Below, piece after piece: positions 1-19,910 of a stretch of DNA of 29,445 nucleotides. A program made the position numbers and the translations under genes. Numbering within the stretch: the first letter of the stretch is position 1; every line of letters begins with the position of its first letter. The notes beneath the pieces are model-generated. The model saw only the letters and a list, made by a program, of their open reading frames with translations, made no database searches and was not told the origin of the DNA. The DNA comes from a virus (taxonomy: Duplodnaviria; Caudoviricetes): IMG/VR virus record IMGVR_UViG_3300037483_001074, positions 1 through 29,445 of that record; one strand, 5' to 3'.

Positions 1-1133
1 TCGCGCGCCTCGCGCTCCTTGTAGAAGCAGGCGTCGCAGCCGCGAGCCGGGTGCATGGGCTTCCCGCACTTTGGGCACTCGGGCCGCTTCTTCCTCGCCT
101 TCGGAACGACCGGATCCTGGGGGAGAGTCCCGGCCGCAGGTGTCCCTGACTCCTGCGGAACGGGCCCAGGTTTGGCGGAGTCCGGCGCCCCGCGTCCGAA
201 CGCTTCGTCGACCGACCGCTCGATCTCCGCGGCCAGGGTGACATCCTCGGGCGCAAGCTCGGGCAGCTCTGGCTCCGGTTCCCTCGGGGTCTGGAAACGC
301 ACTCCGTCTGCCGTCTGTACAACCTCTGTGCGTAGGCTGACGACCGGCTCCGCCGGGCGGGGATTGGCTGCCTGCTGCGCCCCGCGGCGGAGCTCCTCGA
401 TCAGCGGGTCGGTCCTGCCCGGCGGGAGGCCGAGCGGGGCCTTCGCCTCGCCGCTCCCCGCCGACGCCGAGGCCGCGCGCGTCCGCTCCGTGCGGCGCCC
501 CTCGCTCGCATCGATGTCCTCGGCGACCCCCTCGATCGGGATGCCACCGAGCTCAGCCGCGAACGCGATGTCGAGCGCTCGAGCCCGCGCGCGCGATAGG
601 AGCATGTCCTTGAGGTAGGACTGGTACGTGCTGTCGTAGGACTTTCCGTACTGGTTCACGCGCTGTCCGAGGAGCTTTGCCGTGGCCGCGTCTTCGTAGG
701 TGAACTCCTTGACGGTCGGCTCCTGGCCCTTCCTCTTCGCGACCGCGCAGCCCTTGAGCGTCTCGCCCTCGCCCTCGGTCCACTCCTTGTAGCCGTCGAA
801 CGTCGGCTTCGACTGCACGACCGCGAGGGCCCCCTTCGACATCAGGGCGAGGCGCCCGGCCTGCGTGAAGTAGATGAGGTTCCAGGCGGCGAACGGCGGG
901 AGCCCAAGCTCGTCGCCTTTGCAGAGCACGGCGAAGGCTGCGTTCGGCGTCTTGATCTGGATTGGGAGGACCCCGGACTCGTGGATCTTCTGCGCGAACC
1001 ACGAAGCCCACCTGTACCAGCCGAGCGGGCGCTGGTTCGGGCCGAATGCGAGGTCTGCGTTCTTGAGGTTGAACTCCTCGGCCGGCGCTACGTCCTGCTG
1101 CCCTGACGGCAGCGCCTTCGGTACTTCACCCAC
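1..1133 (-). CDS. recT: RecT/Bet-like single-strand annealing protein with a C-terminal CxxC..CxxC zinc ribbon (3' end truncated by the window edge)
   Basis: Absent from the ORF track because it has no stop in the window. Manual translation from GTG 1133 (GGAGG at 1143-1139) gives MGEVPKALP...ESGVLPIQIKTPNAAFAVLCKGDELGLPPFAAWNLIYFTQAGRL...YQSYLKDMLLSRARARALDIAFAAELGG, matching the RecT/Bet pattern. It ends in CPKCGKPMHPARGCDAC and lies directly downstream of the RecE-like gene. Confidence 0.8.
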   Translation of the reverse strand, partial: MGEVPKALPSGQQDVAPAEEFNLKNADLAFGPNQRPLGWYRWASWFAQKIHESGVLPIQIKTPNAAFAVLCKGDELGLPPFAAWNLIYFTQAGRLALMSKGALAVVQSKPTFDGYKEWTEGEGETLKGCAVAKRKGQEPTVKEFTYEDAATAKLLGQRVNQYGKSYDSTYQSYLKDMLLSRARARALDIAFAAELGGIPIEGVAEDIDASEGRRTERTRAASASAGSGEAKAPLGLPPGRTDPLIEELRRGAQQAANPRPAEPVVSLRTEVVQTADGVRFQTPREPEPELPELAPEDVTLAAEIERSVDEAFGRGAPDSAKPGPVPQESGTPAAGTLPQDPVVPKARKKRPECPKCGKPMHPARGCDACFYKEREAR

Positions 1134-1177
1134 ACCCACCTCCCCACCAAAGTCACGGGGCCCGATCGGCTCGGTCT

Positions 1178-2125
1178 TCAGAGGGAAGCGCTGAACGCCT
1201 TCCCCATCCAGGCCGGAATCCCGGCTGTCTCGACCCCGCCGTCGTACCCGGGCCACTCGTCGCGCTCCTTGCAGAGCGCGTACTGCCGCAGGTGCTCGCG
1301 GAACTTCTGATACCCGTACTCGAGGGCCCCCGACTCGATCTCGAAGAGCCGGACGAGGTAGGGCTCGAACGTCTCGCACGCGAGCCACAGGAAGCGGCGA
1401 TCCCCCTCGGCCAGGGGGCGTAGCACGCGCCCGCCCTCGAGGTACATCGCAGCCTGCTCCGCGTAGTCGTAGTTGCCGATCGCGCGCTCCATGTTCCGGA
1501 GGCTCGCGACGTCGCTCATCGTCTTCACGTCGAGGAAGCACGACCAGCCGCCCAGGACGCCGGCGCGGTCGAGGCGCGACTTGCAGAGCACCTCGTGCTC
1601 CTCGTCGAGCCACACGAACACGAGCTCGGAGGCCCCCGGCCCGTAAAGGACCTCACGCGCCGAGGCATGCTGCGAGATGGAACGCAGGAGCCCAGCGCAC
1701 ACCGCCATCTGGTCGTACGTCAGGAGCTCCTTGCCCCGGTTCTCCGCCTCGAACTTCGCCCAGGCCGCCTTGCCCGCCGTGGTGCGGCGGTCGACCTTCG
1801 GGGCGACGACGAAGTTCTGGGCGAAGCGCTCCGGCTCGAGGACGGCGGCGTGCACGGCGTGGCCGAGCGCCTGCGCCGGCGTCGGGATGTCCTCCTTCAG
1901 GAGCCCGACGCGCGCGTGCGCCGCGGTGTCCTTGAAGAGGGACAGCACCGAGAAGTTGATGGCGTCGATCCGGGTGTACTCCTCGAAGGACATGTCCGTG
2001 TAGACGCCTGGCTCCTTCTTGAGCGGGCGCGAATCGGGGGGAGGGGAGTCGGGCCCTAGCGTCCCAGGTGCCTGCTCCCCTCCCCCCATCTCACTTTGGG
2101 GTATCTGGGCCTCGACGTCAGCCAC
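1178..2125 (-). CDS. recE: RecE/exonuclease VIII-like PD-(D/E)xK nuclease
   Basis: Motifs PGVYTDMSFEEY..IDAINFS, LGHAVHAAVLEP, KVDRRTTAGK, CKSRLD..FLDVKT and YDYAEQAAMYLEG are typical of phage ExoVIII-like nucleases. Paired with the RecT-like gene. Confidence 0.88.
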   Translation of the reverse strand: MADVEAQIPQSEMGGGEQAPGTLGPDSPPPDSRPLKKEPGVYTDMSFEEYTRIDAINFSVLSLFKDTAAHARVGLLKEDIPTPAQALGHAVHAAVLEPERFAQNFVVAPKVDRRTTAGKAAWAKFEAENRGKELLTYDQMAVCAGLLRSISQHASAREVLYGPGASELVFVWLDEEHEVLCKSRLDRAGVLGGWSCFLDVKTMSDVASLRNMERAIGNYDYAEQAAMYLEGGRVLRPLAEGDRRFLWLACETFEPYLVRLFEIESGALEYGYQKFREHLRQYALCKERDEWPGYDGGVETAGIPAWMGKAFSASL

Positions 2126-4616: not shown

Positions 4617-5384
4617 CTACCTGATCGCGACCTTGATTGTGACCTTCTCGAGGTTCGTCGTGGCGTCGGAAGCATCGGCGCCGGTGAAGGCGACCCCGAC
4701 CCGGCAGAGCGGGAAGGATGGGCCCTCGTCGACGACCGTGAGCCTGGCCGTGACGCCGGCCGTAGCGAACGAGCAGCGGTCCGTCGAGAGCGTCCCGCCG
4801 AGTCCGCAGTCGCTCGACTCGCCAGGGTAGAGCACAACCGGGTTCGCGCCGGCGCCGGCCGCCTTGCACTCCCACCGGACGACGAGCGCCGTCAGGTCGC
4901 CCTGGTCGTACTGGACCGTGAGCGCGACGCGCTGCGCCGCGGCCGAGGTGGAGAACCAGCCGTCGTTGTCGGTCGTGCCGCACAGGTGGTGGTAGAAGCC
5001 GAAGTTGTTCCCCGTGATGTTGATCGCAGTATCGACCGTGATCGAGGCCGCGCTCGCCTTCGCCGTGACGGCCACGACGGTCGTGGCGCTCGGGTTCGTC
5101 GCGGTCGGCGTTTGGATGATGAGCACGTCGCCCACCACGACGCCCGCAAACGGATTCGTGCCTGAGGTGACCTCGACCACCGTCGTGCTCGAGCCGGTCG
5201 TTTTGATCTGCGCAGCCACCGGAACCTGGGCCGCAAAGGGCCCCGGGCTCAGGGTGCAGTACGTCAACGTGGCGCTGTCGACGTCGTAGATCAGCGCGAG
5301 CGCGCCGTCCTTGGCGGCGCCCTGGGCGAACGCGCCCGAGGCAAGGAGCCCGAGCGCCAGCGTCAGCATGAACCTCTTCAGCAT
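4617..5384 (-). CDS. Beta-rich virion-like protein with an N-terminal Sec-type signal peptide
   Basis: N-terminus MLKRFMLTLALGLLASGAFA|Q. Thr/Val/Gly-rich segment TTVVEVTSGTNPFAGVVVGDVLII..ITVDTA resembles phage tail beta domains. Six Cys. Confidence 0.7.
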   Translation of the reverse strand: MLKRFMLTLALGLLASGAFAQGAAKDGALALIYDVDSATLTYCTLSPGPFAAQVPVAAQIKTTGSSTTVVEVTSGTNPFAGVVVGDVLIIQTPTATNPSATTVVAVTAKASAASITVDTAINITGNNFGFYHHLCGTTDNDGWFSTSAAAQRVALTVQYDQGDLTALVVRWECKAAGAGANPVVLYPGESSDCGLGGTLSTDRCSFATAGVTARLTVVDEGPSFPLCRVGVAFTGADASDATTNLEKVTIKVAIR

Positions 5385-8454: not shown

Positions 8455-9105
8455 TCACCCTCCGAAGATCTGCCCGGCGAGGACGAACTGCGCGTCCGGT
8501 GCCGCGAAGCTGCTCCCCACCAGGTCCGCGTAGTGGTGCGTGTGCGGCGTCGGGCGGCGCGGCTGGATGAGCCCGGCGCCGGCGGAGAGGTTCGCCTTCA
8601 CCGTCACCTTGTCTGGGCCCGCCTCGTCGGTGACCAGGAAGTCGATATCTCCCGAGTCCTCGAAGTTGAGCGCGTTGCGCGTGCCCACGTCCGCGTCCTC
8701 GAGCTGCACGCGCACATCCCGCTTGTGGACGTGGTCGCTGAAGGGGAGCTGCGGCCCAGACCCGATGGCGTTCGCGTTCCCGAGCCCGGTCGGGGCCGCG
8801 ATGTCTGCCTGGTGCTTGTGGTCCCCCGGCGACCACCCGACGGTCGGATCGCCAGGATCACCGGCGGCTCCGTCCACGAGCTCCGGGGTTCCGGCGTAGA
8901 AGGCGTTAGACGTCACGGCCAGGTCGTTCGCGCTCTGCAGGTAGTGGAGGAAGCGCTGGAGCTCCTGCATCGCCGCGTCGAACTCGCCCGGGAGGCGCTG
9001 CAGCCCGATCTCCGGCTTCTCGCCTTGCTTCGGGAAGGACAGGCGCCCGACGAGCTGCGGGACGTGGATCCCGTAGCGGCGCGTCGATCGAAGCCGGTCG
9101 GTCAC
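8455..9105 (-). CDS. Hypothetical protein, possibly tail-fibre-associated
   Basis: GTGA overlap with the giant gene stop. Contains DHKH/DHVH/HTH motifs of the kind seen in trimeric fibre segments. Confidence 0.7.
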   Translation of the reverse strand: MTDRLRSTRRYGIHVPQLVGRLSFPKQGEKPEIGLQRLPGEFDAAMQELQRFLHYLQSANDLAVTSNAFYAGTPELVDGAAGDPGDPTVGWSPGDHKHQADIAAPTGLGNANAIGSGPQLPFSDHVHKRDVRVQLEDADVGTRNALNFEDSGDIDFLVTDEAGPDKVTVKANLSAGAGLIQPRRPTPHTHHYADLVGSSFAAPDAQFVLAGQIFGG

Positions 9106-12100
9106 TTCGTCTTCACCTCGGCCTTCCCCTGCTGCAGCCTGCGCGTGACGCTCAATAGCATCTCACGCCTTGCAGCATCGTGAGCGAACCGATAGATCCG
9201 CTCCAGAAGCTCGCGCTTGGCGAAGGCGTCGAGGGCGCTCCAATCGTTGTTCGTCGTGAGCGTCCTGGCGAACGCCGTCGCGCGCTGTGAGTAGCCGGCG
9301 TAGATCCGGCGCTCGGCCGGCGTGAGGTCGACCTTCCGGCCGAAGGTCCCAGGGAGCGTGATCGTGCGCGGCGGCTGGCTCGGGCTGTAGCCGGCCTCCA
9401 GGAAGATGCGCTCGAGGTTCTTCTCGGGCCCGGCCTCCTCGGCGTAGCGGACCGGCGAGAGGAAGCGCGACGGCGCGTTCTCGCCGCGGATCACAGGTTC
9501 GCCGGTCCCGGTGAGCCGCGGCGGGAGCGTCGTCGACAGCATGGGGACGCGGGCCATGAGCGTCTGCGAGATCGAGTCCGTCTCCCTGATCGTGGGATCG
9601 ATCGCGCGCGCGCCAGCCGCCAGTAGGTTCGGCACCGCGGCCCCGAGCATCCGCTTCCAGAAGCGGCCGGCATAGCGGTCCGGGTCGCCGATCGCCTCGG
9701 CGGCGTTGATCAGGCCCTCGAGATAGGTCTTGTTGAGCGTCTGGTTCAGGACCGAGTAGTGGAGCTTGTCGAAGGCATCACCAGCGACCTTCTGGTCGTC
9801 GACGGCCGCGAGGTCGGCGGCGAGCCCAAACGTGGTGGCGAGCGGCTCGATCCTGGCGTATGAATACCAGGTCTTCCCGACGCGCACGGCGTAGGGGAGC
9901 TTTCCGGTCTTCAGCCAGTTCTCGCGGTCGCGCGGGTCCTCGGGGGCCCCGCCTGTGATGAACCCGTTCTTCGCCCACACGTAGACGGCCGCCGTGAGCA
10001 TCGTCCCGAGCATGCCTTGGGCCAGTCGGTCGCTCGCCTCACCGCCCTCGATCGAGCCCTTCGAGATGTTGTAGACGGTCTTCGCGAGGCCGAGAGGGGT
10101 GCGGCGGAAGCCCTGCACCAGCAGGCGCTCCGTCGTGTGGACGAACGGGATCGCGAACGACAGCGCAGGGTAGGCGTTTCGCAGCGCCTTGATCAGGCTC
10201 GAGAACTTCGTCGTCGCGTCACGGAACGTCGAGACATCCCCGGCGTGCCGCATGTCCTCGTAGATCGCGGCCAGGTCCCGGTGACGGTAGAGGAACTTGT
10301 AGCCGTCCGCGCCGTACTCGCTCTGGAAACTCGTGGGGTCGGCTAGGCGCTGCTCCTCGAGCAGGATCCACTGGCCCATGATCTCGTGGAGCTCACGCAA
10401 CCGCTCCTCGAAGTCGGGGCTGCTGATCTTCCAGCCGTTCTTATGGGCGTCCTGGTAGGCGCGGAACCAGAGCTGAGCCGCCTGCTCGGCCGACATCGCG
10501 GACTGGCGGGCCGCCAGATCGAGCCCCTCCATCACGCGGCCTGGCGTGCGCACGACCTTTCCGAGCACGCCCGGGATCGCCGGCGGGTAGAACTCGCCCT
10601 TCAGGCTGCGCATGAACTTGATGTCCTCGCGGCGGAGCGCCAGGAGCGTGTTGTTGAGCGCCGCCGGCATGCCGAAACCGAGGCGGACCTGGGCGCGGAG
10701 GGCCTCCATCGCCTGGCCGACGACCCGCTCGGTCGGCTTCGCCTCGCCGCGGAGGAGCTGCTCGAGGCCCTGGCGGATCCCGAACTGCTCGAGCCGGGCC
10801 GCGATCGCGCGCTCCGGGGTCCGCAGTGCCGCCTCGTGTACCAGGTTCCCGGCCACGTTCGCGATCGACGTAGAGGGCGCGGACAGCAGCGAGTTGATGT
10901 AATACTCGATGATCATCCGCAGGATCCCGGGCTTGTGGATCTTGCGGATCAGGCGGCCGGCGCGCTCCATGTCGTTCGCGCGCAAGGCCTCCACGAGCTC
11001 GGCCATCGCCTTCTCGTCGCCGCGGCGTCCGCGGAACAAGCGCTGCAGGAAGCGCTCCTCGGGGGTGAGCATCTGGGCCAGCATGTTGTGGGCCCGAAGC
11101 GCGCGGCCGGCCTCGGCGGCGGCGGCGGCCGTGCCGTACATCATGCCGATGAACTTGTGGAGCGCCAGGAGCTTCTCGCGCTCGGCGTTGAGCACCTCCT
11201 GCCGGCGGCGCTCCTGCTCCTCCGGGTCGAGCCCCTTCTCCTTGGCGTGCTCCTGCGCCTCGCGCCACGCCTCCCACCGGTTCCCGAAGTCGACCCCGGC
11301 GTGCTGCCGGAGCACGCGGCCGAAGATGATCTCGGGGGCCGTGAGCGCCCCCTTCTCGCGCACCATGCGGTGCCAGTCGGCCTCGGAGTACCCGAGCTCG
11401 AGCGCCATCGTGTGGAGCTCCGGCATCGTGTACTTCTGGCGCGCGACGCCAAGGCGGTCGCTGAGGGCCCTGGCCCCGCGTGCCACGACGTTCTTGATCT
11501 GGCCTTCGTCCGAGATCTGGTGGATGTTGATCGGGAAGTCGCGGCTCTTGCCGACCCCGATGGGCTTCCCGCCCGCCACGTCGATGGGGGCACCGGCCTC
11601 GCCACGCACGATCGCGTCCGCCACGGCCAGCATGTCCTGCGGCGTCACCTTGGGGATCGGGCGGATCGGCCCCTTGTAGGCGCGCACCTCGGGCACGGTC
11701 GTCTCGAGCGCCTGAGCGAACGGCTGCACCTGGCCGGTCCGCTGGAACTCGATCGGGGCGCCAAGCCCCCCGATGTAGTCCCAGAGCTCGCGACCGTAGC
11801 GGCCGGCCCACGGGACCTTCGCGACCAGGCCTTTCAACCAGGCCGAGAAACTGCGCGCACCCCTGCGGATCGCGTCGACGCCCAGGACGAAAGCGTCCCA
11901 GAACGCCCGCGGATCCACCCCAGCTGAAGCCTCAGCCATCCGCGACTGCGTCCTGAGCTCGGCGAAGCGCACGCGCCGCGCCCACCAGTCGGGGTCCGGC
12001 TTCCCCCATTCTGGGAGCGCCGATACCGGCGGCTCGGCCAGGTGCTGCCCCGCTTCGAAGTTAGGCACCCCGAGGAGCTCCTGCCAGGGCAGGTCCGGCC

Positions 12101-15100
12101 TGCCGTGATACGAAGACGCCGAGAGCAGGGTGTCGACCAGGCTCTTGCTCGTCCCGAGGTCGAATACGTCCTGCAGGACGCCGTCACCCATGTGCACGTT
12201 GGCGGCCGTGGACGACCGGTTGTCCTGTAGGATCCCCGGCCCGGCGGCGAAGACGGAGTCCGCGCCCGACACCTTGCCGACGAGGACGACGAAGCGCCTG
12301 AAGGAGCCTGGCGAGTTGAAGAGCGGACGCGGGACAAGCGTCATGAGCGCCAGCCTGTTCTGGCGGTCGACGAACATCACGGAGACGTCCGTCGAATCTT
12401 TCCGCCAGAGCCCGCTGCCCAGGATCGACTCGGCGAACGAGCGCACGTCCTTCTGGCTGCGCAGCCGATACGGCGACTGCTCGTTGTAGTACGCCGCCGA
12501 GTCGATGCCCTCCTGGAGGAACGGGTCCGGGTCCACAAAACCGCCGGCCGCGCGCCGGATCATGTAGTGGGTCCCGTTCGGGCGCACAACCGTCGCCTGT
12601 TCGTGGTCGACGATGGCGGCGCCCATGTAGCGCTTCCCGAGCGCCTGGGCGAGCTTTCCGGAATGCGTCAGGTCAGGATCGCTTGGGAGCGCGTTCCCGG
12701 ACGGGTGGTTGTGGAGGCTGATGATCCCAGCGATTTCTACGCCCTGTTGCGCGAACGCCGCGATCCTGCCCTCGATGTTCCGCACGAGTGGCGTGGTTGG
12801 GCCCCACGAGACGAACGAAGGCGACTGCGACGACGTCTGCATCGAGCCCCTGATGACGCCAGCACGGTCCACGAAGAAAATGGCGGCGTGCTCGAGCGAG
12901 GGGTTGCGCGCGGTCTGGAAGATGGCCGCGGCGTTCTCGAGGGAGCCCACGTATTGGCCGTCGAAGTCAATCTTCCCGAGCTTCTGGAAGCCCTCGCGGA
13001 GCGCCGTCGCCGCCACCCTGATGCCCGCACCGAGCTCGCGGCCGGTCGCCAGGCTGACGCCTGTCCCGAGGCGTGCTGGCTTGCGCCAGTCGAGGTGCGG
13101 CCTCTCGTAGCTTATGACCTCGGCCACCGGGCTCCCGACGATGCCTGCGACAGCCCGGACCTCCGAGTCCGGATCGCTCGAGCGTTCCTGGCCTTGGGCG
13201 AAGTCGTCGAGAGCGGCGTTCACCGAGAGTGGATCCGGCGCCGGGGCCTTCAGGGCCTCTTCCCCGACGCTCAGCCAGTAGAAGGCGCCGTGGTCCTCCT
13301 TCGGCATCGCAAAGCCCCGGTCCGTCCCGCGCGGCGGCACAAGCTCTCCCGTCAGGAACTCGCCGGTGCGAGTCCCGATCTGCCAGGCCCCGGGCTGCGC
13401 CTCGCCCCAGATGGCGCCGGCCTCCTCGAGGCGACGCTTCATGAACTCGTATTGCCTGAAGCTGACGATGGGCTTCACGTCGCGCTGCGCCCCGCTCGTG
13501 GGCCCAATCTCGCGCATGAGCCTGAGCGCCGCGTCGGTCGCGATCGCCGGCGGCGGCGGCTCGGCGGCGCGCGCCGCCTCACGGAACTCGGCCGCAGACT
13601 CGTCGTGGTTCCAGGTCAGGTTGCCGTAGGCGCGGCCGCGGAGGCGCTCGCCGAGTTCTGGCACGAAGCCCTTCGCGATGTTCCCGCTGATCTCGAAGCC
13701 CTCGTGCGTCTGGACCGAGAACTCACCGCCCTCCCGCATCTTGATGTCGACGCCCATCCGCTTCAGGCTGTGGATGATCGCGCCCCACTGCCGCGGGCTC
13801 TTGACTGCCATCGCGCGGCCAGCGGGGGTGAACTGCGCCAGCACCCGCGCAGCGTCGACGTAGTGGACGGCCCCGGCGTTGAGCGTCTCCTCGTCGCCGC
13901 CCATGCCGGCCAGGTCGAGCGCCGCGATGTCGCCGCTCACGAGCGCGTGCAACATCTTCAGCTTCCCGGCCAGGATGCCGCCGTTCCAGGCGTCGAGCCC
14001 GTGGTCGCTGAAGAGGATGTGGATCCTCGACTTGCTGCGCGTCGTGAACCGGTGGATCCGCCCGAGAGCCTGGACGAGGGACACGGAGTCGAAGGGCGAC
14101 GTCATCAGGATCATCGAGCGCGGCGCCGCGCCAGAGCGGTCGTCGAGGTTGATCCCGGTGCCGCCCTTCTCGTAGCTCGCGATCACGACCTTCGCCTCGC
14201 CACGCTGGAAGCGCGCCTGCGCGTCCTCGCTGCGCTCGTCGGCGGCGCCGTGGATCTCGGCGGTCGGGATCCCCTCGGCCTTCAGCCACTCGGCAAGCTG
14301 CTTCAGCGTCCCTTCGGACTCTGCGATCACGCGCTCGCCGATGATGTCGCCGCGTTCGTCTCGGATCTTCTCGCGCACCTCGGACTGGTTGACCCGCGTG
14401 GCGAATACGACCACCTGGCGGCCAGCCGCGAGCTCTTCCATCACGAGCTTCTGCGTCGCCTGGAGCTTGTACGGCTCCTGCTGGCGGCGCATGTGCATGA
14501 GCGCGTTCTTCCGGTCGAAGTTGCCCTGCTCGATCCGGTCCATGACCCGGTGCGCCTCTTCCGGCAGCATCACCTTGTGGGTGACCACCTGGATCGGAGA
14601 GAGGTCCACCTCGCGCTTGATGACGGTCCCGGTGCGCGTCAGGCGGCGGAAGAGCGCGTCGAGCGCCCGGCGCATCTTCCGCGGTGACGTCGTCTTCCAG
14701 ACGTCGATGGTCTCGGTCGCGGCCTCGCGCGCGGCAACGCGGTCCATGCCGGCGGCCAGGTTGCGCTTCAGGAGCACCTTCGACACGCGCTTCTGCTTCC
14801 GGATCGAGACGCCCAGGTCCTTCATCGCCGTCTCTGGGTCCTTGCCCTCGAAGAAGCCGATGGAGGCGAGGTAGCTCATGTGGTACGGCTTGTCCCCGGG
14901 CGTCGCCGTCGCGAAGCCCGCGACCCTCACCCGACGGATAAGGTCGGCACCCGCGGCCGCGACCTCGGAGTCGCCGGCGCTCTTGAGCTGGTGCGCCTCG
15001 TCCAGAAGCAGCACGGTGTCGCCGTCGACGGCGTAGTCGCGGAGCGCGTGGTAGGTGCCCAGGTTCACGACCCCGGACTTGAGCGGCTTGCCGCGCTCGG

Positions 15101-18100
15101 TGACGTACTCGATCGGGATCCCCATCGCCGCGGAGTCGTCGCGGTAGGAGCCGCTCGGCACCAGGCGCCCAGCGATCTTCTTCGGCTCGATCGACCCGGC
15201 CTTCGAGACGATCAGGACCTTGTTGCCCTTCTTCAGGAACGTGTGCGCGAGCGCCAGGAGCTCGCGGGTCTTCCCGACGCCGGTGCCGTCCTCGAACAGG
15301 AAGCCTGAGCCGGCGTCGAACGCCTCGATCGCCTTCGCGACTCCGACCGCCTGGTCCTCGGACAGGTGTTGCGCGAGCTCGGGCGGGATCAGGCCGAGCT
15401 TGGCAGGGCGCTCAAGGCTCTCCGCCTCCCGGGGGTTGACGATATGGAAGATCCCTGCTCGAGCAGCCGGACGCGCTCCCGCTCCAGGGACTCCAGCCGC
15501 TCCTTGTACTCCAGCAGGAACGCCAGGTCCTCGTCCCCCTCCGCGGCGGCCTCCAGGAGCTCCTTCTCCGACAGCAGCGCCCGCTCCTCGGGCAGCAGGT
15601 CCTCGAGCCGCGGCGGCGGCTTCACCTTGAGCTGGTCCTCGTTCGGCGGCAACGCCCGGTGCGGGTAGTCCACTGACTTCTCCCTTCAAGAGATCCGCCC
15701 AACGCTGACGGGCGGCGAGCTGTTCTGCGGTGGCCTTGCGCGGCGGCGGACCGTATCGCCCCACCAGGTTGTCCTGCGGCAGCGACACGAGAGACGGCAG
15801 CTTCGGCGCCTCCAGCAGCGACCTCTGGCTCGCGCGCTGCCGCTTCAGCCGCTCCGCCTCCTCGCGCGCGGCGCGCGCCTCGTCCTGGGTGAAGAGCGCG
15901 GCATCGGCGAAGTCTGGGGCTGGCTCGCCCTTGCGCGCGATCGGCTTCTGGGCCGTCCCGATCACTGCCTCCATGAACCCAGGGATGAGATCCTGGCCTT
16001 CCCTCGTCCGCGGCGCCTCCAGGAACCCCTCGACCTCGGCGCCCTCCGGGATCTCGAACGGGACGTCGTTCTGCATGACGCTCATGGCGTCGGTGTAGGC
16101 CGTCCGGATCCTCGAGAAGAGCCTCCCCTTGCCGAAGCGCATCGCCTCGATCACGGCATCGGCCGTCGCCTGCTTCCCCGTGGCCGGGTCGTTGATGCCC
16201 CACATGAACGTCTTGAGCAGCGGGTGGTCCGCCGACTCCAGGCCGGCCTCGAGGTCCTCCTCGAGGTTGTCGGCGATCGTCAGAAGCGCGGGATGCTCGA
16301 ACGCCTGGTCGGCGTACTCGTGCAGGAGCTCCTGGAACGCGCGATCCTCGGCCTGCGCCTTGCGCCGGTACTCGAGCATCCGCTTGAAGAGCGGGTCCTC
16401 GGGTCCCTTCGCGAGCGCCTTCGCGATCTTGGCGCGGCCCACGCCCGGCAGATCCACGACCTGGCGGATCGCGTCCTCGCCCATGCTGTCGACGTCGGCG
16501 GCCAGGCGCTGCAGCGAGTCGTAGACGTCCTCGTCGGTCTGCGCATGGGCGGCGCTGTACTCCTGGACCTTCGCCACGGCCTCGCCGAGAGGCAGCGCCG
16601 CGACGTGGTCGATCCAGCCTTTGACGCCGCTGTAGGCGTAGGTCGTGAGCGGCAGCTCCTCGCGCGCGGCGCCCGTGGGAAGCCCCTTGCCCTCGACGAG
16701 CTGGCGCAGCCGCTTCACGACGGCTGGATCCTTGGTCGTGCCGCGGATCGTCTCCCACCCGGCGCCGTAGATCGCCTGGGCGTTCGCGAGCGCGTCCTTG
16801 GCTGCACGGCGCTTCACCGCGCGGTTCTTGATCTTCTGGCCGGTGACCGGATCCACCTGGCGGCCGAAGTGGTCGTAGTCTGCCTGGCGCTGCTCTACGA
16901 GGAAGCGCCGCCACATCTGCTCCTCGACGTGCCGCCGCGCGGCGACGCGCGTCTTCTTATCCTGGATGCGATCGAGCGCCGTCTCCATCGCCTTCCGCCG
17001 GACCTCGCCGAGCTCGGAGATCTGCGGGCGCACGGGGCCCTTCGTCATCGTGGGCGGCGTGGGCGCTGCGGCGGGCCCGGCGGCGCGGGCGGCGGCTGGC
17101 GGCGGCGCCACAGCGCCAAATTCCCCGAACGCCGCGCGCATCCCAGGCGTCGGCTCGACACGCTTGATCGGCCGCGCACCGGCCGCGGGCCGTTTGGCCA
17201 ACTCGCCGACCGGCTTCGTGGTGTCGCCTTCCTTCAGCCAGGCCTTGAAGGCGTCGACCGGCATGGGGGTCACGGCCCCGATCCGCTCTTCCGCGCGGCC
17301 GTCCGAGAAGCCGCGGCGGTAGGCCTCGAGCGCCGACGCTTGATCCGGGAAGCCGAGCATCGCCTTGTGCTCGTCGAAGCGGCCCGTGTCGGCGTCCACC
17401 TGGTCGACGACGAAGACGTTCTGCGCGGCCGCGTCGTCACCGACGTAGACGTCGACCTGTTCGCCGTCTGCCCCCTCGGTGCGCTTCACGTACCCGTAGT
17501 CGGCCGGGAAGTCCCTGACCTCCCACGAGCCGTCCTTCGCCCTGCGGACGCCCCCCTTGGCCGTCTCGACCGAGATGTCGAGCCCCTGGAAGTCGCGGTG
17601 GCCCTTCCGGTAGTTGCCGGCCTCGATCTGCGCGGGCGTCGGGGCAGGCTCCGGCTCGGAGCTCAACTTGTCCACGTCGACGTACTGCTCGAAGCCCTCG
17701 TCGAAGAGCACGCGGGCCCGCGGCCGGCCCTCGACCTCGACGAGCTCCAGGGCGGTGCCGCGCCGGGCGCCGCTCGCAACGCGCTGGCCAACCGCTACGG
17801 CTTGACGTGCGGCGGGCCTGGTGGCAGGAGCCGGTTCCAGTCCTGCCGGAGCTTGCGCCTCCGCCGGAGCTTCCGCCGGCCGACCCTCGACGACCACCTC
17901 GACGTCGGGGTTCAGGCGCTGGAGCTCAGAGCGGATCTCCTCCGGGTTCGCTTCGCGAGTGAACGGCGTCGGGAGCTCGGTTGTGCCGAACGCCTCCATG
18001 ACCTCGTCGGCTACGGGGCCCTCGTGGGCAGCGATCCAGTTGCCCCCGCGGAGCCCGAGCGTGATCCTGCCGCGAGGCGCCAAGGACGGTTGTACCGCTA

Positions 18101-19910
18101 TACCGCCAGGTGTAACAGCGCCAGGCGCCACAGGAGGCGCGCCGGCGGCCAACGGCGGCTGGAAGGTCGCCCCGGGAGCCGCCGGGGCGACAGGCGGGGC
18201 CGTGGGCAGCGCAGGGGCCACGGCGGCGCCAGGCAGGATCGGAGTGGTCGTGATCGACGGAGCGGCGCCGGCGGCCGGGCCGCCCAGGATGCCGAGCTCC
18301 GGCGGGGCCGTTCCGATCGGCGTCGCGGCCGAGATGCCAGGGGGCGGCGTGCCGGCGTTCTGCGCCTGAGCAGCTTCGATCAGCCCCTGGACGGTCGGGC
18401 GCGCGGCGGCGGCGCGCTGCTGCGCGGCCTCGACTGGCGAGAGCTCGCCGGGCGCCACGGGCGGCACCGGAACGCCTGGCGTGACTGAAACGCCGACTCC
18501 CGGGCCTGGCAGCGGCGCGCCTGGGAGCGTCGGGGTGATGGCGGGGCCCGCGGCGAGCGGCGCCGCGGCCGGCGGCGGCGCACCAGGCACCGTGACGGGG
18601 CCCGCTACGCCCGGCTGCGGCGGCTCGGCGGCGACCGGCGTGCTCATGCCCTTCTGCTGCTGATCCAGAATCTCCTGGCGGGCCTGCTCGAGCGACTGGA
18701 TGGCGAGGATGTCCCCGGCGTTCCGCGCGGCGCCGAGCGATGAGTCGATCTCGTCGAGCTGCGCCTGGAGCGACGCGGCCGGCACCTCGGCGGCCGGGCG
18801 CTGCGGCAGCGGCGTCGCGGACTCGGTTTCTGCGGCAGCGCCGTCGACGGCCTCCTGGCGCGCCCGCTCGATCGGATGGTCGACCCCGGGGAACGCGCCC
18901 CCGACCGGGCCTCCGACGAGCGCTCCAGCGATCGCCTCGCCAGCGACCGCCGGCCCGGATGGCAGCCTGGCATTCTGGATCGCCTCCTGGACAATGAGCT
19001 GGCCAGCCTCTTCGACAGCTTCGGCGCCGGCGGTCGCGGCAGTCGTGACCGCGCGGCGAGCGAGTGGGCTCGCGATGCCGGCCCCGACCCCGCGAGCCAC
19101 CTGCAGGGCTGGGACCTCGAGAATGTTGGTCACGCCAGCGGCGCTCGCCTCGCGCCAGTTGACGGGGCGGTCGTCGAGAAACTTCTGGGCCGTCGCCTCC
19201 GCGAGGGCCGTGGTCCCCGAGATTGCCCCGGCCGTCAGGATCGGGCCAGCTCCCGGAATTGACGCCACGCCAAGGCCAACGACCATCGGCAATCCAGTCG
19301 TGAGCGCTGTCCTGGCAAGTCCCTTCGGAGTCGTGAACGACTGGATGAGCCCTTCGTAGGCGGCTGTCGCCTCTTCTGCGTCCCGTGTCTGGACCCCGGA
19401 AGCGACCTGACTCTCGAGGTTCGCAATGTGCTTACGCGCAAGGTCTTCGGCAGCCGACTCGGCCTCCTCGCGTGAAGCGCCATCTCTGAGGCGCTCCATC
19501 CCGTGCTGTCTGGCTGCGTGGAGGATATCCGCTGCACGCTTTCCGTACTTGTTGGCGTGCTGAGCGTATACATAAGGCTCAACTGCGTCTGGCCCTTGCG
19601 TATTCCTGACGTGCTCTGCCCCGACGCGAATTTCTCGCTCAGTCTGTTCGTTGAGCTTGTCCAGCCCGATAGGCTCTTCCGGCGTCGGGACCGGCGCGGC
19701 GACCTCGCCGAAAATGTCCGGGCCGCCTACGCCTCGCAGCCTGGCGAGGGCCTCGTCCAGGAAGCCCTGGTCGCGCGGTGGAGCCGTGGGTGGCCCAACG
19801 GTCGGACGAGGCGTGAACGGCCTGATGTACGGCTCGGGCCCGGCGGACTCGGCGCGAAGGGCAGCGAGCTCATCCTCGAGCCACGAGGACCTGGGCGGGT
19901 TGCTCCCCAT
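9102..19910 (-). CDS. Giant (3602 aa) polyvalent internal-virion/ejection protein: InPase-like + SF2 helicase (Strawberry-notch type) + JAB/MPN + LPD38-like C-terminus
   Basis: InPase-like segment PTPAQIEAGNYRKGH..DYGYVKRTEGADGEQVDVYVG..FDEHKAMLGF at about 17210-17645. Helicase motifs DGTGVGKT (~15270-15290), DEAH (~14995), TAT, GGTGINL and QALGRIHR (~14060). JAB motif E..HNHPSGNALPSDPD (~12670-12900). C-terminal GFITGGAP..PYAVRVGKTWYSYARIEP region. Confidence 0.85.
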   Translation of the reverse strand: MGSNPPRSSWLEDELAALRAESAGPEPYIRPFTPRPTVGPPTAPPRDQGFLDEALARLRGVGGPDIFGEVAAPVPTPEEPIGLDKLNEQTEREIRVGAEHVRNTQGPDAVEPYVYAQHANKYGKRAADILHAARQHGMERLRDGASREEAESAAEDLARKHIANLESQVASGVQTRDAEEATAAYEGLIQSFTTPKGLARTALTTGLPMVVGLGVASIPGAGPILTAGAISGTTALAEATAQKFLDDRPVNWREASAAGVTNILEVPALQVARGVGAGIASPLARRAVTTAATAGAEAVEEAGQLIVQEAIQNARLPSGPAVAGEAIAGALVGGPVGGAFPGVDHPIERARQEAVDGAAAETESATPLPQRPAAEVPAASLQAQLDEIDSSLGAARNAGDILAIQSLEQARQEILDQQQKGMSTPVAAEPPQPGVAGPVTVPGAPPPAAAPLAAGPAITPTLPGAPLPGPGVGVSVTPGVPVPPVAPGELSPVEAAQQRAAAARPTVQGLIEAAQAQNAGTPPPGISAATPIGTAPPELGILGGPAAGAAPSITTTPILPGAAVAPALPTAPPVAPAAPGATFQPPLAAGAPPVAPGAVTPGGIAVQPSLAPRGRITLGLRGGNWIAAHEGPVADEVMEAFGTTELPTPFTREANPEEIRSELQRLNPDVEVVVEGRPAEAPAEAQAPAGLEPAPATRPAARQAVAVGQRVASGARRGTALELVEVEGRPRARVLFDEGFEQYVDVDKLSSEPEPAPTPAQIEAGNYRKGHRDFQGLDISVETAKGGVRRAKDGSWEVRDFPADYGYVKRTEGADGEQVDVYVGDDAAAQNVFVVDQVDADTGRFDEHKAMLGFPDQASALEAYRRGFSDGRAEERIGAVTPMPVDAFKAWLKEGDTTKPVGELAKRPAAGARPIKRVEPTPGMRAAFGEFGAVAPPPAAARAAGPAAAPTPPTMTKGPVRPQISELGEVRRKAMETALDRIQDKKTRVAARRHVEEQMWRRFLVEQRQADYDHFGRQVDPVTGQKIKNRAVKRRAAKDALANAQAIYGAGWETIRGTTKDPAVVKRLRQLVEGKGLPTGAAREELPLTTYAYSGVKGWIDHVAALPLGEAVAKVQEYSAAHAQTDEDVYDSLQRLAADVDSMGEDAIRQVVDLPGVGRAKIAKALAKGPEDPLFKRMLEYRRKAQAEDRAFQELLHEYADQAFEHPALLTIADNLEEDLEAGLESADHPLLKTFMWGINDPATGKQATADAVIEAMRFGKGRLFSRIRTAYTDAMSVMQNDVPFEIPEGAEVEGFLEAPRTREGQDLIPGFMEAVIGTAQKPIARKGEPAPDFADAALFTQDEARAAREEAERLKRQRASQRSLLEAPKLPSLVSLPQDNLVGRYGPPPRKATAEQLAARQRWADLLKGEVSGLPAPGVAAERGPAQGEAAAAARGPAARGAGAAVGEGAPGGRRGGGRGPGVPAGVQGAAGVPGAGARPAARAGIFHIVNPREAESLERPAKLGLIPPELAQHLSEDQAVGVAKAIEAFDAGSGFLFEDGTGVGKTRELLALAHTFLKKGNKVLIVSKAGSIEPKKIAGRLVPSGSYRDDSAAMGIPIEYVTERGKPLKSGVVNLGTYHALRDYAVDGDTVLLLDEAHQLKSAGDSEVAAAGADLIRRVRVAGFATATPGDKPYHMSYLASIGFFEGKDPETAMKDLGVSIRKQKRVSKVLLKRNLAAGMDRVAAREAATETIDVWKTTSPRKMRRALDALFRRLTRTGTVIKREVDLSPIQVVTHKVMLPEEAHRVMDRIEQGNFDRKNALMHMRRQQEPYKLQATQKLVMEELAAGRQVVVFATRVNQSEVREKIRDERGDIIGERVIAESEGTLKQLAEWLKAEGIPTAEIHGAADERSEDAQARFQRGEAKVVIASYEKGGTGINLDDRSGAAPRSMILMTSPFDSVSLVQALGRIHRFTTRSKSRIHILFSDHGLDAWNGGILAGKLKMLHALVSGDIAALDLAGMGGDEETLNAGAVHYVDAARVLAQFTPAGRAMAVKSPRQWGAIIHSLKRMGVDIKMREGGEFSVQTHEGFEISGNIAKGFVPELGERLRGRAYGNLTWNHDESAAEFREAARAAEPPPPAIATDAALRLMREIGPTSGAQRDVKPIVSFRQYEFMKRRLEEAGAIWGEAQPGAWQIGTRTGEFLTGELVPPRGTDRGFAMPKEDHGAFYWLSVGEEALKAPAPDPLSVNAALDDFAQGQERSSDPDSEVRAVAGIVGSPVAEVISYERPHLDWRKPARLGTGVSLATGRELGAGIRVAATALREGFQKLGKIDFDGQYVGSLENAAAIFQTARNPSLEHAAIFFVDRAGVIRGSMQTSSQSPSFVSWGPTTPLVRNIEGRIAAFAQQGVEIAGIISLHNHPSGNALPSDPDLTHSGKLAQALGKRYMGAAIVDHEQATVVRPNGTHYMIRRAAGGFVDPDPFLQEGIDSAAYYNEQSPYRLRSQKDVRSFAESILGSGLWRKDSTDVSVMFVDRQNRLALMTLVPRPLFNSPGSFRRFVVLVGKVSGADSVFAAGPGILQDNRSSTAANVHMGDGVLQDVFDLGTSKSLVDTLLSASSYHGRPDLPWQELLGVPNFEAGQHLAEPPVSALPEWGKPDPDWWARRVRFAELRTQSRMAEASAGVDPRAFWDAFVLGVDAIRRGARSFSAWLKGLVAKVPWAGRYGRELWDYIGGLGAPIEFQRTGQVQPFAQALETTVPEVRAYKGPIRPIPKVTPQDMLAVADAIVRGEAGAPIDVAGGKPIGVGKSRDFPINIHQISDEGQIKNVVARGARALSDRLGVARQKYTMPELHTMALELGYSEADWHRMVREKGALTAPEIIFGRVLRQHAGVDFGNRWEAWREAQEHAKEKGLDPEEQERRRQEVLNAEREKLLALHKFIGMMYGTAAAAAEAGRALRAHNMLAQMLTPEERFLQRLFRGRRGDEKAMAELVEALRANDMERAGRLIRKIHKPGILRMIIEYYINSLLSAPSTSIANVAGNLVHEAALRTPERAIAARLEQFGIRQGLEQLLRGEAKPTERVVGQAMEALRAQVRLGFGMPAALNNTLLALRREDIKFMRSLKGEFYPPAIPGVLGKVVRTPGRVMEGLDLAARQSAMSAEQAAQLWFRAYQDAHKNGWKISSPDFEERLRELHEIMGQWILLEEQRLADPTSFQSEYGADGYKFLYRHRDLAAIYEDMRHAGDVSTFRDATTKFSSLIKALRNAYPALSFAIPFVHTTERLLVQGFRRTPLGLAKTVYNISKGSIEGGEASDRLAQGMLGTMLTAAVYVWAKNGFITGGAPEDPRDRENWLKTGKLPYAVRVGKTWYSYARIEPLATTFGLAADLAAVDDQKVAGDAFDKLHYSVLNQTLNKTYLEGLINAAEAIGDPDRYAGRFWKRMLGAAVPNLLAAGARAIDPTIRETDSISQTLMARVPMLSTTLPPRLTGTGEPVIRGENAPSRFLSPVRYAEEAGPEKNLERIFLEAGYSPSQPPRTITLPGTFGRKVDLTPAERRIYAGYSQRATAFARTLTTNNDWSALDAFAKRELLERIYRFAHDAARREMLLSVTRRLQQGKAEVKTK
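15389..15673 (-). CDS. Overprinted (nested, +1 frame) 94-aa acidic helical protein inside the giant gene
   Basis: AAGGGAG SD 6 nt before GTG. The first 73 codons all end in G/C, while about 50 of the 73 overlapping host-frame codons end in A/T. Product is MDYPHRALPPNEDQLKVKPPPRLEDLLPEERALLSEKELLEAAAEGDEDLAFLLEYKERLESLERERVRLLEQ... Confidence 0.7.
   Translation of the reverse strand: MDYPHRALPPNEDQLKVKPPPRLEDLLPEERALLSEKELLEAAAEGDEDLAFLLEYKERLESLERERVRLLEQGSSISSTPGRRRALSALPSSA

Follow-up and report, generated by a model that had tools for sequence, protein, structure and literature searches.

The window analyzed here is the whole 29,445-nt stretch of the IMG/VR record IMGVR_UViG_3300037483_001074 (positions 1 to 29,445), a linear virus record that is 44% complete. 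Its minus strand carries a gene for a giant protein, with neighboring genes that match the SU10 adaptor and virion structural families, and an ORF is nested in the +1 frame of this giant gene just ahead of the part encoding the helicase domain (Table 1). Elsewhere in the window (3-2125, minus strand), a weak RecT-like gene lies beside a PD-(D/E)XK DUF3799 gene, likely forming a recombination module.

Table 1. Features of the giant gene and its nested ORF, in window coordinates
Feature	Position	Strand	Details
Giant polyvalent protein gene (host of the nested ORF)	9102..19910	minus	3602 aa
InPase domain of the giant protein, residues 760-893	17232..17633	minus	Pfam PF18823, E 4.4e-43
Shine-Dalgarno-like AAGGGAG	15680..15686	minus	6 nt upstream of the nested GTG; from sequence
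Gly/Ala/Pro/Arg-rich linker, giant residues 1413-1486	15453..15674	minus	Shadow of the nested gene; 50/73 codons A/T-ending
Nested gene	15389..15673	minus	+1 frame, GTG start, 94 aa; residues ~2-76 conserved, tail variable
SF2 ATPase (Snf2-related, strawberry-notch-like), residues 1487-2030	13821..15452	minus	Predicted partner of the nested protein
RadC/JAB-like domain of the giant protein	12603..12731	minus	Pfam PF04002, E 1.7e-4, 21.9 bits vs cutoff 22.1

The giant protein unites InPase, SF2 ATPase, and RadC-like domains in one chain within a virion-gene context, the features by which polyvalent proteins are recognized. Pfam placed Helicase_C at residues 1866-1955, with AAA_34, Helicase_C_4, and RadC all below cutoff in the window protein; in the relative P0028, AAA_34 and Helicase_C_4 were both above cutoff, as was AAA_34 alone in P0012 and P0022. 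According to PMC5512222, strawberry-notch-like ATPases also bear a winged helix at the C terminus. The window helicase has intact Walker A, DEAH, and motif VI sequences, and in the PDB it matches Snf2/Rad54 ATPases best (E 1e-17). LPD38, LPD39, and ddrB-ParB occur in relatives. The protein is similar to the P1 DarB-type polyvalent proteins as presented in the main text of Iyer et al. 2017 (PMC5512222), which are giant multidomain phage proteins encoded among virion genes and bearing InPase, RadC/JAB-like, and SF2 ATPase domains. It differs from the DarB archetype in two ways. At E 0.01, neither the 3602-aa protein nor any of five full-length relatives showed a methylase family, and the giant protein is therefore not a DarB-like methylase-helicase dyad; P1 darB, in turn, lacks an SD-led nested ORF. 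Polyvalent proteins are described in the same main text as likely packaged in the capsid (PMC5512222), and by analogy we infer that the giant protein would be injected into the new host.

Two reading frames in one stretch of the giant gene

The earlier note on this DNA, made from the letters alone, had claimed a collapse of third-position GC in the main frame over a normal-looking +1 frame, and both parts were borne out. The first 73 codons of the nested ORF end in G or C without exception, whereas the giant frame has A or T at the end of 50 of its 73 codons across this stretch, versus 8.9 expected for the same amino acids and 10.1% in the rest of the giant gene (binomial p 8e-33; maximum of 19 in 3000 synonymous resamplings). 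The per-frame codon plot suggested in the note revealed a single peak along the giant gene, with the codon-usage score (+1 minus giant frame, 73-codon windows) reaching 1.61 at giant codon 1413, which is the nested GTG, and at most 0.004 outside the nested region; the longest other run of nested-like codon pattern in the giant gene covered 29 codons. The note had cautioned that the G/C-ending run partly follows from the amino acid content of the giant protein. This caveat holds, as the +1 frame stayed open in 49% of the synonymous resamplings, so that an open +1 frame alone is no evidence.

At about 15455 the codon bias shifts back to the giant frame. From the nested stop it is 7 codons to the H in HLSEDQ of the giant protein, and the last ~21 nested codons, which vary among relatives, overlap the conserved N-terminal extension of the helicase. 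Other low-complexity spacers exist in the giant gene, but by codon score only the spacer before the helicase is dual-coding, and the other third-position GC dips (codons ~80-200 and 660-700) gave no second gene by the same score. The first of these dips (19310-19670, minus strand) is a milder drop, to 0.62-0.72, and the N-terminal segment that it marks was possibly acquired recently.

Two compensating indel errors, with the +1 frame being a plain part of the giant protein, would produce this codon pattern by themselves, and the earlier note had named them as one finding that would refute its reading. Contigs from runs of three studies argue against such errors, as they are free of gaps over the locus: X1 contigs, which may be the window's own source, showed 0 differences and 0 gaps over 15000-16011, and the same was true of X2 over 15650-16101 and X3 over 15255-15495. 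The X2 and X3 sequences, short-read contigs from two other studies, bridge both possible frameshift points. Moreover, the two-frame layout, with its own SD and start, recurs in all five close loci described below. Given the gap-free X2 and X3 contigs and this shared layout, we excluded the indel reading, whose probability is practically nil.

A second strain (X4 record 26, X1 record 5) showed 59 differences over 15104-16115 and a net 9-base deletion, most of which is listed near 15819-15831. Among the differences listed, only two fall within the nested ORF, and the listed gaps are all outside it.

Start signal, selection, and distribution of the nested ORF

The AAGGGAG motif and GTG that the earlier note had assigned to the nested ORF are present at the spacing given in Table 1, and motif and start are both kept in close relatives. 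A +1-frame TGA (15688-15686) overlaps the first base of AAGGGAG. By strict anti-SD matching the nested SD is a weak match, consisting of a 4-mer only (GGAG); the gene at 4617-5384 of the same window shows the same arrangement of GAAGGGAG, 6 nt, and start. A hairpin is predicted over the nested SD of the window, with folding no better than in shuffled sequences (z -0.85), and the RNA around six nested starts showed no structure of note. Within 15300-16300, neither a sigma-70 promoter nor a terminator was detected, and no RNA entry was listed among the holders of the window sequence.

Protein searches with the nested peptide returned 7 homologues with the single sequence, 3 more with a profile, and a further 2 among representatives. 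Five close metagenome loci (L001-L005, of which L001 and L002 are near-identical) were compared. In all five, the giant frame is open through the spacer into the helicase, the nested frame is open too, and an SD-like motif with a GTG or ATG stands directly before a conserved YPH. An SD-like motif and start occupy the matching place in L001-L005 and L034, and start codon and SD are kept in six of the six close loci when the window is counted and L001 and L002 are taken as one. Because motifs, spacers, and start codons differ among these loci, the signal has been kept despite changing letters. No close relatives were found in viral_contigs, with the peptide or helicase as single query or with alignment A1, or among the annotated phages.

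Substitution patterns in this group differed between the two frames. Giant-frame third-position differences amounted to 0.185 in the overlap versus 0.364 in the helicase. In all 10 pairs, the nested frame had a pN/pS below 1, and that of the giant frame exceeded 1. Pooled over six loci, with L034 included and the alignment guided by the peptide, pN/pS was 0.64 for the nested and 1.40 for the giant frame. Judged by these ratios, the nested frame only is under purifying selection in the close group of the window. Across the peptide groups the picture was less uniform: nested-frame constraint was clear in two groups, selection was weak in the EELTA group (0.79 nested vs 1.01 giant), and both frames were constrained alike in the L021 group (0.40 and 0.45).

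To survey the wider helicase family, loci were collected by a Walker A pattern, which matched 28 viral and 45 genome loci and yielded 35 true helicase relatives; 38 of the 45 genome_contigs matches were not helicases and were excluded. Without L037, which duplicates L021, and L002, which is nearly the same as L001, the final set held 39 loci (35 relatives minus one duplicate, with four close loci and the window added). Of these, 37 entered the tree and the motif table, as alignment A2 was built without L029, which is short, and L036, which holds an N.

An SD-led +1 ORF of at least 35 codons starting 60-170 codons before Walker A was found in 27 of 38 loci, compared with 0 of 38 in the +2 frame; in other windows such +1 ORFs occurred in 1-5 of 28-39 loci, and in the adjoining window in 8 of 39. 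The +1 frame was free of stops at codons -90 to -45 in 31/39 loci, versus 1-11 in other windows. When loci were collapsed to <55% identity (29 clusters), an SD plus ATG/GTG +1 ORF was present in 18/29 clusters versus 0-2 of 22-29 in six control windows of equal size, the test window having been picked after the first loci were known, and the +1 frame was open in 24/29 versus 0-6 elsewhere.

Several proposals of the earlier note can be judged on these data. Its suggested scan of homologous genes for SD-led +1 ORFs before the helicase gave the enrichment just described, its proposed two-frame dN/dS comparison came out in favor of the nested frame, and the loss of SD and start, or the +1 stops, that it expected in homologues if the gene were spurious did not appear in close relatives, which keep both signals. 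Conserved SD and start, nested-frame selection, and family-wide position thus support a separately initiated nested gene, as the note had held in proposing that the linker carries a second gene with its own initiation. We regard this gene as almost certainly real, and its product is likely translated separately, from its own ribosome-binding site.

In nearly all loci the nested ORF ends near the start of the helicase, as might be expected if the second frame served translation control, either as a leader for re-initiation of a helicase-first product or as part of a programmed frameshift. The details point the other way: a giant-frame ATG or GTG near the nested stop occurs in 1 of 39 loci, no X XXY YYZ heptamer is present in the six closest loci, and the nested stops vary from 15 to 57 codons before Walker A. 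The conservation of amino acids in the nested frame and the unremarkable RNA structure at the six starts also count against such control, which we consider very improbable. The re-initiation idea, raised in the earlier note, and the slippery-site reading were both rejected on the first two of these observations.

Nine loci have no SD before the ATG chosen and show an A-rich run instead, with A at -3 in 8/9; two of the nine come from Bacteroidota assemblies. The A-rich run replaces the SD upstream of the nested ATG in L021, L025, L027, L028, L036, L039, L079, and L084. Bacteroidota are reported to have no SDs and to favor A at -3 (PMC6847099). Since the local DNA is A-rich as well (33-47%), the A-rich start signal is only a hint.

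Nested peptides fall into groups that neither BLAST nor the A1 profile links, and a common function across clades is thus assumed from position. Most of these groups sit together on the helicase tree, and the segments upstream of the linker form 24 clusters among 36 loci, which suggests that the hidden gene travels with the helicase and not with the upstream domains. Both the shadow linker and the nested ORF are missing from L067, whose helicase is intact, and in P1 darB no SD-led ORF in another frame precedes the helicase; such motors can therefore exist without the partner.

Some individual loci showed further peculiarities. L067, from a Cytophagales assembly, has an insert of its own in the hairpin that follows motif III of the helicase, which in the clade of the window is the predicted docking site of the peptide; this is a single case. 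In L030 (1650-2010), the open stretch of the helicase ORF ahead of Walker A measures just 117 codons, most of them shared with the nested ORF, giving a near-minimal unit of helicase and nested gene. The P0015 helicase has an apparent intein-like insert interrupting the Walker A region, which we take to be of the LAGLIDADG type (Pfam PF14528 match). In phage P1 (L094:26577-26975), iddB is annotated antisense inside ddrB, an embedded gene of the anti-restriction operon.

The nested protein and its predicted complex with the helicase

Profile searches revealed no Pfam family for 5 nested peptides and no PHROG for 14, and neither a TnpV-like nor any other Pfam or PHROG small-protein family matched them. 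Searching PDB sequences with the peptide profile gave nothing below E 1.5, and a fold search of two models against BFVD or PDB gave no match at E 0.001, PDB having been queried with the first, weaker model. Only unnamed clusters were found in the ESM Atlas (0.89-0.90). An AlphaFold2 model built from 14 sequences (pLDDT 79.4) showed a proline-rich arm in extended conformation along with three helices, two of them short (28-32, 36-46) and one long (48-76).

In complex prediction, peptide residues 1-76 and helicase domain residues 1487-2030 scored 0.70, 0.72, and 0.70, compared with 0.00 for the best of three controls. The mark for the complex score is reached by 116/157 solved and 2/215 mismatched pairs, counts that are only rough with the present alignments. 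The runs share at least 69% of contacts, with a partner pLDDT of at least 70, and recall of a similar complex is unlikely because the peptide has no solved relative. The model places peptide residues 2-34, 45-46, and 55 on helicase lobe 1. There the contacts fall at 1644-1659, the segment and helix that follow DEAH, at 1676-1696, the helices that follow motif III, and at 1703-1743, a hairpin region. An insert peculiar to the helicases of this clade forms part of the hairpin region and accounts for 5 of the 49 interface residues. The proline-rich arm (2-34) is predicted to run along the helix that follows Walker B and along the helical/beta-hairpin insert that follows motif III. In Snf2 ATPases, the segment after DEAH contacts DNA. 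From this model, the nested protein probably binds helicase lobe 1, and as a prediction only, the earlier note's proposal of a cognate partner for the helicase is upheld by the separation of 0.70 from 0.00.

A conserved motif of the giant frame lies just before the spacer (15690-15760, minus strand; giant residues ~1385-1408) and consists of RYGP.P followed by a short helix. It is also present in L001, L003, L004, L034, and L043 and resembles the proline-rich arm of the peptide (KVKPPPR). This motif might bind the same helicase site in cis, in competition with the peptide.

Other features of the peptide allow a different reading, in which a real gene has made use of an unconstrained spacer and acts elsewhere, on a host protein or as an acidic DNA mimic, with the docking being a false positive. 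DNA mimics of the Ocr/ArdA type expose an acidic surface whose spacing copies that of DNA phosphates and which competes with DNA. Residues 1-76 contain 20 Asp/Glu versus 11 Lys/Arg, 23 of the 39 nested peptides are net acidic, and the peptides differ between clades. Conservation is not raised at the interface either, in the helicase (151/245 vs 1095/1754 for the rest) or in the peptide (0.63 vs 0.64). However, the remaining 16 of the 39 peptides are not net acidic, the other low-complexity spacers of the giant gene are not dual-coding, the position is fixed to the helicase across the 24 upstream contexts, and all three docking controls scored 0.00. We therefore hold an unrelated target to be improbable.

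The main rival to a brake or chaperone is a positive cofactor or structural subunit, which would stay bound, be packaged, and work with the motor in the new host. The same predicted interface is compatible with this role. Walker A lies outside the interface, so that a brake is not implied by the model and the direction of effect is inferred; likewise, the invariant peptide residues E38, E41, A42, and L70 are outside it, so that the model leaves the conserved acidic helix unexplained, and this helix would be free for a second partner. A precedent is provided by TraH, which stabilizes the TraI relaxosome, as reported in passages of PMC7314908. On the other hand, the intact helicase of L067 without a nested ORF indicates that the peptide is not an obligatory subunit, and a permanent subunit could simply have been fused in frame. 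On balance, we regard a cofactor role as rather unlikely.

Proposed role and significance

Taken on the structural prediction, there is about an even chance that the nested protein is a cognate binding partner of the helicase, serving as its brake or chaperone in the producing cell. In this mechanism, one late mRNA would yield both the giant and the nested protein, and the motor would be covered as it is made, with the peptide clamping onto helicase lobe 1 as a brake or folding aid in the virion-building cell. Since the small protein is a chain of its own, it would not have to accompany the giant protein through packaging or injection, which could leave the motor free in the next host. Because it lies within the spacer, the nested gene would move with the helicase when polyvalent domains reshuffle.

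Genes embedded out of frame in others have been found in unrelated systems. Rz1 of the lambda spanins is embedded out of frame in Rz and works with the product of its host gene in lysis, and comS, with a function in competence, is embedded out of frame in srfAB; neither pair has any sequence or domain relation to the nested gene. Closer in arrangement is TraH, described in passages of PMC7314908 as an acidic protein encoded in another reading frame inside traI of the IncP plasmid RP4. TraH is likewise small, acidic, and encoded out of frame within the gene for a large DNA-processing enzyme on a mobile element, and it acts on the complex of that enzyme. Its host is a conjugation relaxase, whereas the host here is the SF2 ATPase domain of a phage polyvalent protein, and the Pfam scan assigned the nested peptide to no family. 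GndA, a +1-frame microprotein in E. coli gnd that relocates Gnd according to parts of a preprint (bioRxiv 10.64898/2026.10.22.760973), shares the +1 frame, an internal start of its own, and action on the product of the host gene. As given in the same parts of that source, GndA overlaps a folded metabolic enzyme, is membrane-bound, and is heat-induced via an RNA thermometer; in the nested gene, by contrast, the overlap is a spacer and no notable RNA structure is present at the start. By analogy, the nested gene would resemble TraH and GndA in its working while belonging to neither family. The word "overlap" is absent from the main text of PMC5512222, and a literature search covering mainly open-access papers found no report of nested genes in polyvalent proteins.

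More tentatively, the Snf2-type motors of injected polyvalent proteins may carry a built-in, clade-specific off-switch, an effector/immunity pair within one gene. Such a pair would pass through domain shuffling as a single module, with a start signal fitted to the host ribosome (SD, or A-rich in Bacteroidota-type loci), and packaging would leave the switch behind, confining the activity of the motor to the newly infected cell.

Much of the annotated low-complexity "linker" before the helicase of such giant phage proteins is the shadow of a second gene, for which neither Pfam nor PHROG has a profile. As a search rule, the cognate regulator of an enzyme may be indicated by reduced third-position GC, or by an SD-led +1 ORF, before the enzyme domain. 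If the predicted binding holds, a defined assay with two proteins would become available for enzymes whose part in polyvalent proteins has so far only been inferred, and small natural proteins that bind Snf2-type ATPase lobes would be useful as tools. For the phage itself, such binding would explain how it can produce a DNA motor destined for the next host while sparing its own DNA.
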